The notes under the pieces were generated by a model. It searched no databases. It was not told the origin of the DNA and was given only the letters and a program-made list of their open reading frames with translations. From contig NW_027191457.1 of NCBI RefSeq assembly GCF_011745625.1, forward strand, positions 248,001 through 312,000: a stretch of 64,000 nt of DNA, in the 5' to 3' direction. Shown piece after piece: positions 1 through 46,670 of the stretch. The translations under genes were made by a program, and so were the position numbers. Positions within the stretch are counted from its first letter, which is position 1; each line of letters begins with the position of its first letter. The DNA is from Cladosporium halotolerans. Its lineage: Eukaryota.

Positions 1-474
1 TTGCGGAACTATCACATGCTGTTTAAACAAACGGCCAGACTTATCGTCAAGGTCAGTCAAAGTCTGGAATCTCTCGTTATCGTGTTCGGACAGGCCCGAT
101 CCTTGTTCGATGATCGCAGACCTGCAAAAACTGGGCTTCGCTGTGGGACTGGGAGCTTCTTCAGGACAATGTGCTACTACCCATGGTGCGTCAAAATGGC
201 GCAATTGTTTTTGGAGCAACAGCTCGCTGCGCTGAATGAGAACGCGTTCCCGCGGCTGAAACAAATACGCTTCGAAGGATTCACTTTCCTCAGAGACGAA
301 CATGAAGCCGATGAAGCTGCATTTGCAGAGCTTTTCCAATCGATTCAGGACTGCAGGTTCAACGGCGCAACTTTTACTGAGATCTCTAGTGAGGACGATC
401 GACGCAGGTTTCAAGGGCACGATGGTGGCGAGGACAAGGCTGGCGAATTCACAGACCTCCTGTCAAGCAGTTGA
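1..474 (+). CDS. 3' end of a hypothetical protein running in from the left edge
   Basis: Open frame from base 1 to TGA at 472-474 with protein-like composition; no family recognised. Confidence 0.4.
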   Translation: MRNYHMLFKQTARLIVKVSQSLESLVIVFGQARSLFDDRRPAKTGLRCGTGSFFRTMCYYPWCVKMAQLFLEQQLAALNENAFPRLKQIRFEGFTFLRDEHEADEAAFAELFQSIQDCRFNGATFTEISSEDDRRRFQGHDGGEDKAGEFTDLLSSS

Positions 475-34492: not shown

Positions 34493-34590
34493 GGTCAGAT
34501 GGCCGAGTGGTTATGGCGCTAGCTTCAGGTGGTCTTGAAAGCTACTTGCTAGTGGAGCAATCCTCGTGGGTTCGAGTCCCACTCTGATCA
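34493..34590 (+). tRNA. tRNA-Leu(CAG) with canonical 17-nt intron (34530-34546)
   Basis: Acceptor GGTCAGA/TCTGATC, A box TGGCCGAGTGG, anticodon stem CTAGC/GCTAG with CAG at 34526-34528, long variable arm, B box GGTTCGAGTCC, then a T-run. Confidence 0.93.
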
Positions 34591-34934
34591 TTATCCTTTT
34601 GATCTTCACGAGAGGAGACCGGGGAAGTCTCCGTACGCCTCAGAGTTTGAAGACCAAAACTGCAAGTCCTAATCTTTTGGATCTCGACAACATCAGATGT
34701 ACGCAGCAACAGCAAAGACAAAACAACAGTATTCGAAGCAGCCGATGGTAGCCGATTCTAATCTATCTATCCACTTCTTTTTCTTCACGCCTTCGTATCC
34801 ACCGACCCAGATCCACCCATCCCGGCTCAATCGCGGTATAGCCCTACGACATGCCCACAAACCCTCGTCCCGTCCCCCCAGATCTCAGATGGCAGAGTAC
34901 ATGGGTCATGCAACCGTCTCTCGCCTCATGCACA

Positions 34935-35043
34935 GCATTGGTGGTTTAGTGGTAAAATTGGCCGTTGCCATTGGGCGCTCTCGATCCTCCCTCAAGACTC
35001 CGATAGATTCGGCCAGCCCCGGGTTCGATTCCCGGCCGATGCA
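34935..35043 (+). tRNA. tRNA-Gly(GCC) with canonical 38-nt intron (34971-35008)
   Basis: Acceptor GCATTGG/CCGATGC, anticodon stem GGCCG/CGGCC with GCC at 34967-34969, B box GGTTCGATTCC, downstream T-runs. Confidence 0.93.
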
Positions 35044-35272
35044 AGGCACGCTCGTAGGAGCTTTCTCTTTTTGTTTTTGCACAGCCTTACGACCCGGGTG
35101 CGTTGGTGGAGTGTTAAGCGATGTTTCCAGGCGTTGCGCCAAGCCTTTGCCCACCGGCGGCTTTCACCCACCAGTCCAGCGGGACTGTCGCTGAGGCATC
35201 CTTTTGCATGAACATGTCGCTCTACTGCACATAAACGGCTTTACCTGCTCTCTTGATTACGTCATCAAACTA

Positions 35273-35398
35273 AGCTGAGTGGCGCAGCGGAAGCGTAAGT
35301 TGATTCTTCAATCATTCATTCATCAATTCACATGCTAACATCAAATAGGCGCCGGGCTCATAACCCGGAGGGCAATGGATCGAAACCATTCTCAGCTA
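35273..35398 (+). tRNA. Initiator tRNA-Met(CAT) interrupted in the D-stem by a 54-nt spliceosomal-type intron (35295-35348)
   Basis: Exons 35273-35294 and 35349-35398 give a 72-nt perfect cloverleaf with A1:U72, GGG/CCC anticodon-stem pairs, CAT anticodon and T-loop ATCGAAA (A54, A60). T6 terminator at 35404-35409. Confidence 0.92.
35295..35348 (+). other. Spliceosomal (U2-type) intron-like insertion within tRNA-iMet
   Basis: 5' GTAAGT, branch site GCTAAC (35334-35339), 3' TAG; 54 nt, the same size class as mRNA introns in this window. Confidence 0.85.
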
Positions 35399-36912
35399 CT
35401 ATCTTTTTTGTGGATTTTACTACTTTGCCAGCTTTTATGTAAAATACTTTTGGTGGAGTCTACCTTATCATGGTTGCGCTCATAGACGTGTCTTGTGGGT
35501 GATGAACACCATGGTTCGAACTCGTATTTGTCGGGTCATTCACGTGCCGGTATGTCCCTCATAGGGCCATGAAAGACATATGCAGGATAGGGAGTAAGCC
35601 TTGAGTCTATCCATGCTTGGCTTTTCGAAGGGTTTGAACTAGAGAAGCGTTCAGAGAACAGGCAGTTGAATCTACAGCTATTCCGTGCACGCGCAATGAC
35701 TGCCAATCAAGAGCTTCAAAACCTCAGAACAAGCCGTTCAACACCGGTTGGGCAATATTTCAACGACCATATTATGAGAAGCGAATAGGTAGTTTGACCC
35801 AAGGCAGCGAAATTGCAAAGTATGGAGGGTTCATGGCAAGGCGTGCGAATGGCTTCACGACGCGTCGAGGGACTAGGTTTCCGTCGCGTCTATCTGCAAG
35901 GCTGCATGCTGCAGTAGGAAATTGGCGTATTTCGTGCGAAGTCTAGGTAAAGTACGGGTACAAATGTAGCTCCATCGTTATGTCTCAACGGCTCAAAGCA
36001 TCAATTTGAAATCTGGGAATTCCAGCGGGCAGAGCAATTTATTATCGTATTAGAGTGTTCTCCCCAACCTCTCAACCTCAGTAGTTCAGGACCAAAGATT
36101 ACCAGTCACTCCTATGACCAGAATGCTCTGTGCCCTACTTGGAGCTACAAAGTACACAAGTACCCCATGTACAGCCTCCCAGGGGCGAGATGCTTCGAAC
36201 CAGGGACGCGGGCCCCTCGCAGCAAACACGTGTATGGAAGATCCCTGGAATCTGCATCTCGTCGGGGCGTGAAGACGCGCGCAGTTGAGTCCGTCGCGGC
36301 GCCGGTGCATTCGGGAGGGGCGGAGCGATTCAGGTGGCGGCTGTCTGCAGGCCGCGAGCCAGCCGAAGAGCCGCTGGCTCAGGGGCACGTCTGCGCGCTT
36401 GTGAACCCTCGATGCTCGAGCCCGAGCTGTGCTGCGAAGGCCAGGCGCGCTGCACCGCACCGCACAGCAAGGCGTCCTCGCCCTCCCGCTCACGCAAAAT
36501 AACGTGCATTGCGTCTTCAATACCCTCCAACCAGCAATCTCATCCTGTGTCGCGCCTATTCCGGTCCGCAACGCCTCCTCAACGCCCCGTCTGACCGCGA
36601 TCCGCGCAACTTTCATCACCGCCAACGGCCGCGGGCTGATCCAATCAACGCATCCCTGCTGCGATCCTGACACCGCGTGCTCTGCCCGGCCCGCCGCCCA
36701 TTTCCTCGGACGTCGTGTCGAGACAGCATAGGCCTCCTGCTCGTGTTCCACGCACCGCTGTCTTTCTAGTGACCGGCAATGTTCTAAACGCGAGTGTGCC
36801 TGGGCTGCTGGTGAAAGAAACAGCCACCTGCTACGACGGAAACGCGCTCAGTTCGTAGCCAACAAGATCCATTATTACACGACATACCCCGGCCGACACT
36901 TTCTCGAGGACC

Positions 36913-39720
36913 ATGGTCCACAGTGTCAAGGCATCCTACCACGGAGACGGATACGGTGACGAGTGGGATGACTACGACTCCTATCCGCTGACGCCGCAGC
37001 GCTCGAATTCCAGCAGCAACTACAAACCCGCCGCGAAGCCCACGGGGCTGAACGGCAACCCCTACGATCGCAAGGACTACCACTCTCCACCCGAAGACCG
37101 AGCGAGCTTCACCATGGCCCTGAACACGAAGATGCGGAACTCCAACCAGGATGCAGTAGGCATGCATCTCCTCTACGAGACGGCTATGTTGGATTCGCAC
37201 AGCTACGAGGTCCTGACGCTGGAAGAGGTGGAGGAGCTGAAGAAGGAGCACACACGGTTACAGTCGCGAATTGAGGGCGCACAGAGGAAATTGAAGCTGG
37301 AAAGCAAGGTCAAGGATGCGGCCACGAATCTTCAGCGACTGTACTCTGGGGACTCGACTCGCGCCGATTCACCACAAAATCCGGACAGCCCTAAGCGGGC
37401 TCGGAGGAGCTTGCTCAGTGGAAGGCAAAGGAGCAGCAGCAATGCCAGCAATGAAGGAAAGACGTTGAGTCAGACGGAGAGTGAGCTGGTCACGAGTACA
37501 CGCAAGGTGGACGAGCTGAACGAGACGATCAAAAGCCTATTGGACCGCAGGCAGACTGTCGAAAGCAAGCTTTTGCGCCACACGGCCGCCGTACTGGCTG
37601 AGCAACAAAGCAAGAATGCAGAGGAAACCCCCAGCAGATCGCGTGCGGTTGACGAAGACGATGCGAGCACATACTCTCCTGACGAATTCGACGGCATTCG
37701 CGACATCCTGCTTAGTAGGCCGGCCCATGCGAGCGCGAAACTCCAGAAGCACGGCAAATTGAACGAGGACCATGAGCAGCAGCTCCACAGCATGCAGACC
37801 AGGCTGGAGCACCTGAACGACCAGCTGAGAAATGTCATTGATGAGGCCAGCAGGACGCGTGGCGTCTCACCAGTGCCGGAGCCTCACTATAGCCCAGTCG
37901 TCGGCGACGACACTGCAGCAAAATTGAGCTCCCACTTCGATCGGTTCGAGAACAACCTCCGCGCCTTGCAGCAGGAACAAGAGGAAGCGAAAAAGCATTA
38001 CGCTCAAGTTCAAGAGAGCTCATATCATGCAAGCAATTCTGTGGAGGAGCAGCTGGAGGGCCTCAACACGCAGCTTTACAACACTCTATTACTGTCGCCT
38101 GCTGCGCAATCGATCACAGACTTGCAGGAGCCGCCAAAAGCATCTGGACACGGCTACCAGCCTCAGTTGGCGTATTTGGAGGAGAGCTTCCTTAACATCG
38201 AGCAGCTCCTTCGCCGCCACACAGATGAGCTGCAAGCTGCGGGAGAGAACGGCGAATCCGAAGAGAAGACTCTCGCACAGACTAAGAAGCTGGACGAATA
38301 CGAGGCCACGATCGGTGGGCTATGGGAGATTATGCAAGCAGAACAATCTCTTCTCCGGACACCTCCACTCGACGAGGGCCGCTTCTCTGGCGCCGAGCAA
38401 ATGCCCCGGTCGCCATTGAGCGACTCATTCTCTCTTCCGGCCTTCAGCTCCCGTGTTCAGCACCTCTTCAACCGCGCTTCCGCGGCGAATGAGCAGCACG
38501 ACATTCTCCGCAGGCAGATCCAGCAGCAGCGCGAGCTGAACGGCAAATCTGATGCAGAGAAGGACCGCCAGCTGGAGGAGCTCACCACAAAGCACGAGCA
38601 GTTGGTCGCCTCTGGCGAGCAAATGCAAGATGAGCTCGCCAAGTCGATGGCGCACCACCAGCAAGCTGAGACTGAGATCAACCAGCTGAAGGCAGAGCTT
38701 CTCAATGTGGAGAATGAGTTTACCGAGCTTCGTCGCACTGCGGAGCTTAAGCACCAGGAGCGCGAGGAGATGGCACGCCAGCTGCAAGCTCAGCAGGAAA
38801 ACACTGGCCATCTCCAGCAGGAGATCCAAGAACTCGAGGCCCAGGCGGCGAACATCGAATCGAACTCTGCGGCTCATGCCGAGCTCACCGCACAGCTCAC
38901 CGCCGCCAATGCTGCGCGCGAGCAAGCAGAGCAGAAGCACTCAGCCGCGATGAAGGAGATGGAGCAAGTCGAATCGGAGGTCGTCCGCCTCAGCACCGAG
39001 CTCACCATGGCCAAAGCCGAGCTGGACGGCGCCTACGGCTCACGCGCCGAGCGCGCGAAGGAAGCCCAGGGCAGCGAGATCCAAGTCCTCTCGCAGCGCA
39101 ACGCCGAAATCACCTCCGAACTCGCAGCTCTGCGCGCGGGCGGCGACAACCGCGCCAAGGCTCTCGAGGAAGAACTGCAGGCCATGACCGCGGACTTCCA
39201 GGAGCTGACGCGCGAGGCTTTGCAGCAGGAGCACGAGCGCGGCCAGCTCGACGCGCTGATCGACGGCCTCAGAGACCGCTGCGAGGCGCTCGAGGGACAG
39301 CTCAGCGACGAGCGCGTGCGCTGGATCGGCACGCGAAGCCCGTCGACGCCCATGGCGGGCGAGAACGGCGCCGTGCCGCTCGTCAAGGAGCCGACGAGCA
39401 TGCAGGTCATGAGGCAGGAGTTCAAGAAGATGATGCGCGAGACTCGCGCCGAGGGCGTGCGCTTGCTTAGGGTAAGTCGTGTTCAATCTCCCAGGAGAGA
39501 TTTATAGCGGTAGCAGCAGCTAACAAAAATCCACCAGGTCGAGCAAGACGAACGCCGCAAACTCGAAGCCGAAGTCCGCCGCCTCAAAAACGCCAGCAAC
39601 GGCAACGGCGCCGCCAGCCCTTCGCTCTCGCGCCCCGACGGCGACAGGCTGAGCATCAACGGCCACGGCCACGGAAGGGCCGTCAGCTACAGTACGGGTA
39701 ATTCTTCGACTCGTGGCTGA
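36913..39720 (+). CDS. Up-regulated during septation 1 (Uds1)-domain coiled-coil protein
   Basis: MHLLYETAMLDSHSYEVLTLEEVEELKKE...RKLKLESKVKDAA...LLRHTAAVL plus long heptad regions. Intron 39472-39537 (GTAAGT...GCTAAC...CAG); last exon VEQDERRKLEAE... ends at TGA 39720. Confidence 0.8.
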
Positions 39721-46530: not shown

Positions 46531-46670
46531 CGACGTTGGCAGGATTCGAACCTACGCGTCCGAAGACATTTGATATCGTATAGTAATCAAGGTACAGCGC
46601 CGAATCATTCGAAACAGGCAACATCCCTCAAAGTTCGAGTCAAACCCAGTAACCACTTTGGTACAACGCC
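46531..46670 (-). tRNA. tRNA-Ser(CGA) with canonical-position 59-nt intron (46575-46633)
   Basis: Minus strand: acceptor GGCGTTG/CAACGTC, anticodon stem TTTGA/TCAAA with CGA, variable arm GTC-TTCG-GAC, B box GGTTCGAATCC, G73, T5 terminator. Confidence 0.92.

Follow-up and report, generated by a model that had tools for sequence, protein, structure and literature searches.

Canonical introns of nuclear tRNA genes lie at position 37/38 only, have neither GT..AG termini nor a branch motif, and are removed by protein-only chemistry, being cut by the tRNA splicing endonuclease (TSEN) and, in fungi, sealed by Trl1. Introns of the mRNA type are known from other small RNA genes: the U6 genes of some fungi, Schizosaccharomyces pombe among them, and U1, U2, and U5 of Rhodotorula hasegawae. 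Such introns in small nuclear RNA (snRNA) genes were reportedly described by Tani and Ohshima in 1989 and 1991, Frendewey et al. in 1990, and Takahashi et al. in 1993 and 1996. In addition, lichen-forming ascomycetes have spliceosomal introns in their nuclear rRNA genes, and Dothideomycetes, which are known for recent intron gain, harbor introner-like elements. Non-canonical and multiple tRNA introns of the bulge-helix-bulge (BHB) type are listed for Cyanidioschyzon merolae, cryptophyte and chlorarachniophyte nucleomorphs, and archaea in a 2014 tRNA-intron review (PMC4090602). Here we analyzed a stretch of 64,000 nucleotides (nt) from Cladosporium halotolerans (contig NW_027191457.1, positions 248,001 to 312,000; hereafter the window), which contains an initiator tRNA-Met gene whose D-stem appears to be split by an intron of the spliceosomal type.

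Comparison with related genes indicates that this is probably a functional nuclear gene for the cytoplasmic initiator tRNA-Met, interrupted in the D-stem by a true U2-type spliceosomal intron with GT-AG ends and a branch point. The gene is best read as one of a family of ascomycete initiator genes whose introns occupy at least seven positions. As in fungal U6 and other snRNA genes, a small, highly structured non-coding RNA gene houses a short intron that has GT-AG ends and a branch site, and, as for U6, the intron lies near or among internal promoter elements and a transcript of RNA polymerase III (Pol III) would be handed to the spliceosome. Unlike U6, the host is a tRNA, a class otherwise served by TSEN and ligase, and seven positions are used within one tRNA species; moreover, the usual explanation of U6 introns, reverse splicing at the catalytic center, does not apply to a tRNA. 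The mechanism is best compared, on our analysis, with that of the U6 introns, a Pol III transcript being spliced by the spliceosome, with a class of host RNA that would be new. The spliceosomal introns of lichen rRNA genes likewise reside in non-mRNA genes of ascomycetes, to which the window's fungus belongs as a member of the Dothideomycetes, but rRNA is a product of Pol I. Introner-like elements differ in being multi-copy and longer, whereas the window contains a single copy of this intron, which bears no likeness to the other tRNA introns. With canonical 37/38 introns, the window intron shares its place between the A and B boxes and a similar length. BHB-type introns, as described in PMC4090602, resemble the present ones in occupying the D-arm, the variable region, and the acceptor stem, sometimes two per gene, but they require a BHB fold at the junction and are mostly 3-30 nt long in eukaryotes, whereas the nine complete introns compared here are 50-56 nt long and carry spliceosomal signals. 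In a BHB, two bulges of 3 nt are set apart by a helix of 4 bp; this central helix was fully paired (4/4) in 0/9 of these introns, the best case reaching 3/4 and the window intron 1/4. With this helix and its 23/24 position, the window intron is outside the TSEN/BHB family.

The first-pass annotation knew of no described spliceosomal intron in a tRNA gene, and our search of the full-text literature likewise yielded none, most subscription journals being outside its scope, so that an older report is possible. The word stem 'spliceosom' has 0 occurrences in the available portion of the 2014 review (PMC4090602). A 2025 preprint draws no relation between the classes of spliceosomal, tRNA, and XBP1 introns, presenting them as unrelated (10.1101/2025.06.17.660180), and PMC11146597, consulted for tRNA and for reverse splicing, contains nothing on such introns in the part covered.

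The structure of the gene is summarized in Table 1. Exon 1 supplies the 5' strand of the acceptor stem, U8, G9, the 5' strand of the D-stem, the D-loop, and the first two bases of the 3' strand of the D-stem, and exon 2 supplies the remaining D-stem, the anticodon arm (CAU), the variable loop, the T-arm, the 3' strand of the acceptor stem, and the discriminator A. When the exons were joined by coordinates, ARAGORN reported a tRNA-Met(CAT) of 72/73 nt with a perfect cloverleaf, and 21 of 21 stem pairs in the 72-nt spliced product were of the Watson-Crick type. The product has A1:U72, G29-31:C39-41, the CAU anticodon, the T-loop AUCGAAA with A54 and A60, and the discriminator A73. The cut falls after linear nt 22, corresponding to standard position 23/24. 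A second placement of the boundaries, shifted by +1 (TA..GG), yields the identical product, so that GT..AG is one of two equivalent boundaries. With default settings, ARAGORN made no call on the unspliced gene; its intron mode produced a spurious tRNA-Trp there, and over the whole window it reported 0 tRNAs. The Rfam tRNA model gave only a partial match of 23.2 bits at 35334-35390, compared with a gathering score of 29. Both programs recognized the gene only once the intron had been removed. These results bear out the first-pass annotation, which had described an insert at 35295-35348 in the D-stem of an initiator tRNA-Met gene, lying between positions 23 and 24 and not at 37/38, had stated that its removal restores a 72-nt cloverleaf with all stems Watson-Crick paired and with the eukaryotic initiator determinants, and had expected tRNA scanners probably to miss the gene or to report a pseudogene.

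The intron has a G+C content of 30%, and its longest T-run is 2. Among 400,000 random 54-mers of the same composition, 424 had GT..AG ends, and 0 had in addition a GTRAGW-type donor and a CTRAY motif 8-15 nt from the end. We also observed that the T-stem of the window gene (T-arm, 35372-35392) has A50:U64 and U51:A63 and lacks a purine at position 64. The T-stem of the related locus L105 is built likewise, and the remaining intron-bearing genes have G or A at 64. We take A50:U64 with U51:A63 to be the vertebrate-type signal against elongation-factor binding, and a purine 64 presumably to be the base modified in yeast and plants.

Table 1 Features of the window (in window coordinates) and introns of the related initiator tRNA-Met genes (L numbers).
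Feature	Coordinates	Strand	Length (nt)	tRNA position	5' end	Branch motif	3' end	Remarks
Initiator tRNA-Met, exon 1	35273..35294	+	22					Exon joining, ARAGORN, stem-pair check
A-box-like TGGCGCAGCGG	35280-35290	+						Within exon 1
Spliceosomal-type intron (window)	35295..35348	+	54	23/24 (D-stem)	GTAAGT	GCTAAC	TAG	
Intron donor GTAAGT	35295-35300	+						
Intron branch motif GCTAAC	35334-35339	+						Branch A 35338, 10 nt from 3' end
Intron acceptor TAG	35346-35348	+						
Initiator tRNA-Met, exon 2	35349..35398	+	50					Partial Rfam tRNA match overlaps
B-box-like GGATCGAAACC	35377-35387	+						In T-arm, exon 2
T6 run, read as Pol III terminator	35404..35409	+						5 nt past gene end
tRNA-Leu(CAG)	34493..34590	+						Anticodon-loop intron of ~20 nt, without GT..AG
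tRNA-Gly(GCC)	34935..35043	+						Anticodon-loop intron of ~38-40 nt, TT..AT ends
tRNA-Ser(CGA)	46531..46670	-						Anticodon-loop intron of ~61 nt, not starting with GT
mRNA intron, septation-protein gene	39472..39537	+	66		GTAAGT	GCTAAC		Skipped in contigs of two RNA runs
L079 intron			50	24/25	GTTAGT	CTAAT	TAG	
L105 intron			54	25/26	GTAAGA	CTAAT	TAG	Mature tRNA 72/72 identical to window
L027 intron			Partial	25/26			CAG	Cut by contig start
L045 intron, first of two	274-329		56	8/9	GTAAGA	TACTAAC	CAG	
L045 intron, second of two			52	26/27	GTTAGT	CTGAT	CAG	
L075 intron	332-381		50	8/9	GTAAGT	CTAAC	CAG	
L099 intron	241-290	- (of locus)	50	72/73	GTAAGT	AACTAAC	CAG	Followed by A73, 23 nt, T5
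L123 intron, first of two			53	26/27	GTATGT	GCTAAC	CAG	
L123 intron, second of two			53	46/47 (variable loop)	GTACGT	CTAAC	TAG	T7 directly after gene
L123, both introns	144-196 and 217-269	-						

Related initiator tRNA genes were searched for with patterns that asked for no splice signals. The first metagenome pattern (end of exon 1, gap of 38-68, start of exon 2 at the window junction) returned 0 matches, because the introns of the relatives lie 1-3 nt away and the pattern was too strict. The second pattern combined the anticodon arm with the initiator T-arm, being blind upstream and unable to see introns between positions 29 and 62, and found at least 125 matches at at least 122 metagenome loci. 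Interruption was judged by how far the anticodon arm lay from two landmarks, a D-arm motif and the complement of the 3' acceptor strand. By these distances, 110 of the 125 matches listed had a normal build. The other 15 comprised four intron cases (L045, L075, L079, L105), three genes cut by contig ends (L027, L041, L071), of which L027 nonetheless shows the 3' end of an intron, and eight with mismatched or degenerate acceptors; the candidates L002, L009, L030, L042, L059, L082, L104, and L120 were rejected on the latter ground, having no intron. L041 was likewise set aside as showing no intron. L095 was also rejected, its acceptor complement being imperfect through a G-U pair, as was L069, in which an apparent gap of 120 nt is a neighboring tandem tRNA gene. 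The anticodon-arm core of the window gene was shared by 21 of the matches listed, and six of these 21 are interrupted (L027, L045, L075, L079, L099, L105). A third pattern (D-arm, gap of 40-70, anticodon arm) was run on a prokaryote genome collection and on viral contigs. It gave 0 matches in the viral contigs and, in the prokaryote genomes, L123, a contig of 390 nt and low coverage that was deposited with a Pedobacter assembly and most likely represents fungal contamination of it.

The survey thus provided seven further genes, in metagenome or contaminant contigs, with eight complete introns and one partial intron; part of the initiator features in these pattern-found loci was required by the search itself. 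Six distinct acceptor stems occur among the eight intron-bearing genes, that of the window included, which are therefore not copies of a single sequence. One metagenome provided both L079 and L099, which have a common acceptor stem and both contain introns, with no intronless partner from that metagenome among the matches listed. Intronless genes with the same D-arm were present at at least nine metagenome loci.

All nine complete introns start with GT and end with AG, and they are distributed over seven positions (8/9, 23/24, 24/25, 25/26, 26/27, 46/47, and 72/73). Short fungal introns of the U2 type have the 5' consensus GTRNGT; the 5' ends found here are GTAAGT (three introns), GTAAGA (two), GTTAGT (two), GTATGT (one), and GTACGT (one), and the 3' ends are CAG (five) and TAG (four). 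A CTRAY branch motif in the form of CTAAC, CTAAT, or CTGAT was found in 9/9, its branch A lying at a distance of 10-12 nt from where the intron ends. Removal of GT..AG turned each of the seven complete genes into a tRNA-Met(CAT) for ARAGORN. The interiors, defined as the introns minus the donor hexamer and the last 16 nt, were compared among seven introns, L123 being left out, and 21 of 21 pairs were about as similar as shuffled sequences (z -1.0 to 1.5). Thus, GT, CTRAY, and AG align among the compared introns while the interiors diverge, an outcome that the first-pass annotation had set beforehand as a test of conserved splice signals in relatives. A common origin of the tRNA introns was also tested by alignment, and the interiors did not align, so that either intron sliding or independent gain may apply. 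The window gene and L105 have identical exons, different flanks, and introns that lie 2 nt apart and cannot be aligned. In a blastn-short comparison with the 64-kb window, the window intron gave only its self-match and chance matches of 9-13 nt.

The exons are constrained. In the six spliced products compared, 21/21 stem pairs were Watson-Crick in each, and the same was true of L123. Seven stem pairs vary among the six products, and in all seven both sides have changed, that is, the changes are compensatory. The presence of unrelated introns at seven positions points to repeated gain, or to long retention with turnover, with selection probably keeping the splice signals.

The window itself provides internal controls. 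Its three other tRNA genes have ordinary 37/38 introns, and 0/3 of these have GT..AG ends. The donor GTAAGT and the branch hexamer GCTAAC of the tRNA intron are identical to those of an mRNA intron located 4 kb from the tRNA gene, which was verified by a joint 39470/39537 (cut +1) in RNA runs X17 and X20. An ORF-joining intron scan of the window yielded 32 candidates, a noisy set with many inside long ORFs (open reading frames); the better-formed short candidates, which serve as illustration only, are 47-62 nt long with donors of the GTAAGT/GTGAGT type, CTRAC, and YAG. The earlier statement that the signals and length of the tRNA intron match those of neighboring mRNA introns is in keeping with the shared hexamers of the 66-nt verified intron and with the 47-62 nt of the noisy-scan candidates. 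Taken together, the seven further genes, the lack of a full BHB helix in all nine complete introns, the compensatory changes, and the contrasts within the window support the proposal of the first-pass annotation that this initiator gene is split by a spliceosomal-type intron, as judged from sequence comparison.

Several features of the genes are compatible with transcription by Pol III. Runs of T4-T11 follow every intron-bearing gene within ~5-55 nt (in L099, after the 3' exon), as they do the intronless relatives, and the longest T-run within the nine introns is 3. The spacing from A box to B box in the window gene with its 54-nt intron is no larger than that in the tRNA-Ser(CGA) gene with its 61-nt intron. 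The T6 run, the intron lacking T4, and the tolerated box spacing would thus fit Pol III transcription. We infer transcription, splicing itself, and its machinery, and propose the following pathway. Driven by the internal A and B boxes, Pol III would transcribe the entire unit of 126 nt as far as the T6 run, since the intron offers no T-run at which to stop. The precursor would be unable to fold its D-arm while the intron is present. The spliceosome would recognize GTAAGT, the GCTAAC branch, and TAG, release the intron as a lariat, and join the exons by an ordinary 3'-5' bond, so that TSEN, tRNA ligase, and 2'-phosphotransferase would be dispensable. RNase P, RNase Z, and CCA addition would then complete the tRNA.

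The intron is also present in a relative of the window's fungus. In DNA run X5, a contig from this relative (divergence ~2-4%) covers both exons together with the intron; it differs from the window by six substitutions and lacks 1 nt within the intron, at 35306. Read depths in this run were ~19-21 for single-copy sequence, 50 (~2.5x) for the intron-bearing unitig, and 135 (~6-7x) for an exon-2 unitig of 45 nt. In one contig, 19 letters of another exon-1-like end are followed immediately by exon 2 (35349). Run X5 also contains a 44-nt exon-2-like unitig (35355-35398; four differences, AT-rich flank) at a depth of 858 versus ~20 for single-copy DNA; a tRNA-derived repeat present in many copies, DNA of an organelle, and foreign DNA are possible sources. 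The further claim of the first-pass annotation that initiation capacity is tied to splicing was unsupported and is possibly wrong in view of the extra copies in the relative, the intronless junction, and the at least nine intronless metagenome genes. Since the relative probably has several initiator copies, dependence of initiation on splicing is not supported for the window's genome.

Several observations weigh against a functional gene whose transcript is made by Pol III and spliced by the spliceosome. The depths in run X5 indicate that several initiator genes probably exist there, not all like the window copy, and an intronless initiator-like gene is present in this run, whether it belongs to the same genome or another. 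Contigs of three RNA runs (X17, X18, X20) had depth 0 over 35134-35464 while the neighboring mRNA was covered, which says nothing on expression. The absence of T-runs of 4 or more from the introns fits Pol III only weakly, as short introns often lack T4 by chance. The A box usually directs the Pol III start site, and introns at 8/9 are hard to reconcile with this: in L045 and L075, U8 and G9 flank the intron, so that the first exon has only 8 nt and the A box is moved at least 50 nt downstream of the tRNA's 5' end. Upstream TATA-like elements among 14 genes were at inconsistent positions and uninformative. In L099, which lies on a 2.47-Mb metagenome contig, the 3' exon would give the mature tRNA its discriminator A73 only, and the T5 run is located 24 nt past the 3' splice site; this gene could alternatively encode a tRNA with G73 followed by an intron-like trailer. 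Finally, the support is comparative throughout and comes from the eight genes found.

These observations lend themselves to other explanations. The intron-bearing copies could be dead or dispensable pseudogenes, hit by a mobile insertion (e.g., introner-like) that is recent or gene-converted, while intronless copies supply the tRNA. According to PMC4090602, a eukaryotic tRNA gene with an insertion in its D- or T-arm is usually regarded as a pseudogene. The several copies and the intronless initiator-like junction in the relative's DNA run, the intronless loci with the same D-arm (at least nine), and the zero depth over the gene in contigs of the three RNA runs would agree with this explanation. 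We nevertheless consider it unlikely, because nine unrelated introns keep a donor, a branch motif at a fixed distance, and an acceptor despite diverged interiors, whereas functionless signals would decay together with the interior. The 21/21 stem pairs in the seven genes with complete introns, the compensation of 7/7 varying pairs in the six compared, and the kept terminator T-runs also speak against decay, as does the retention of the intron, with an internal 1-nt deletion, in the diverged relative. In the one metagenome that provided both L079 and L099, both genes have introns, and no intronless partner was among the matches listed. Moreover, no second copy of the intron, as expected of a mobile element, was found in the 64-kb window, although 64 kb is too little to exclude an introner.

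The spliceosome might also remove the intron from a longer precursor, made by Pol II or from an upstream promoter, out of which the tRNA is cut later. The introns at 8/9 in L045 and L075, which separate the A box widely from the first exon, and the 72/73 intron of L099, which needs a transcript extending at least 75 nt beyond the tRNA body, would be explained in this way, and spliceosomal splicing is normally coupled to Pol II. On the other hand, T-runs follow the genes directly, just as they follow the intronless relatives, T-runs of 4 or more are absent from all the introns, the three RNA runs contain no transcript over the tRNA cluster while the neighboring mRNA is covered, and U6 of fission yeast is a Pol III transcript that is spliced by the spliceosome. 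A longer precursor therefore seems improbable to us. Least probable is that these are non-canonical tRNA introns removed by the splicing endonuclease and ligase, through a BHB or a ruler mechanism, with GT..AG and the branch motif being coincidental. TSEN substrates are present in the organism, as the three canonical tRNA introns in the window show, and non-canonical D-arm introns cut by proteins exist in some eukaryotes according to PMC4090602. However, a full BHB central helix is formed in 0/9 introns, and the seven different positions exclude a ruler mechanism. Furthermore, coincidence is difficult to reconcile with GT, AG, and CTRAY at 10-12 nt in 9/9 introns when 0/400,000 random 54-mers had the full set of signals, and the canonical introns of the same window lack these signals. 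A functional initiator tRNA-Met gene with a U2-type spliceosomal intron thus remains the reading that we prefer.

With regard to the surroundings of the gene, tRNA-Leu(CAG), tRNA-Gly(GCC), and the initiator tRNA-Met lie head to tail on one strand within ~900 nt (34493-35409), each followed by its own T-run, and an intron interrupts every one of the window's four tRNA genes. A permissive Rfam scan of the window revealed no additional partial tRNA match. A DNA contig of the relative skips 38 nt (TT..AT, 34970-35009) corresponding to the anticodon-loop intron of tRNA-Gly(GCC), which suggests an intronless Gly(GCC) paralogue in the relative's genome. The ORF of 882 codons at 36859-39507 encodes a coiled-coil protein of the 'up-regulated during septation' kind, whose relatives have the Pfam domains PF15456 and PF25078. 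The gene reaches to 39537 and further, and the RNA-verified intron at 39472-39537 lies in its C-terminal part. Relatives of the protein reach up to 80-99% identity, followed by Cryoendolithus and Rachicladosporium at ~55% and then by many Dothideomycetes, which would place the window in a dothideomycete close to Cladosporiaceae.

Textbooks and the current literature treat spliceosomal and tRNA introns as unrelated classes with separate machineries. If our interpretation is true, the initiator genes would constitute a new class of spliceosome substrate beyond fungal U6, among short, uncapped, structured Pol III transcripts, and standard tRNA finders would under-count the initiator tRNA genes of fungi. 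The family would in addition offer a natural system for intron gain in non-coding genes of intron-gaining fungi, and the proposal is testable in culturable Cladosporium-like fungi. More tentatively, and with more doubt than confidence on our part, an ascomycete lineage, including at least Dothideomycetes, may make its initiator tRNA via the spliceosome, its Pol III-type initiator genes having gained or kept mRNA-type introns time and again at seven or more sites, among them the acceptor/D junction (8/9), the variable loop (46/47), and the base preceding the discriminator (72/73), and with every copy being spliceosome-dependent in some genomes. Nuclear tRNAs would then be spliced by a third route, and the divide presumed between the intron classes would no longer hold. 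If true, the supply of initiator tRNA, and hence the start of translation, would depend on mRNA-splicing capacity, and initiator tRNA supply may be coupled to splicing in these fungi.

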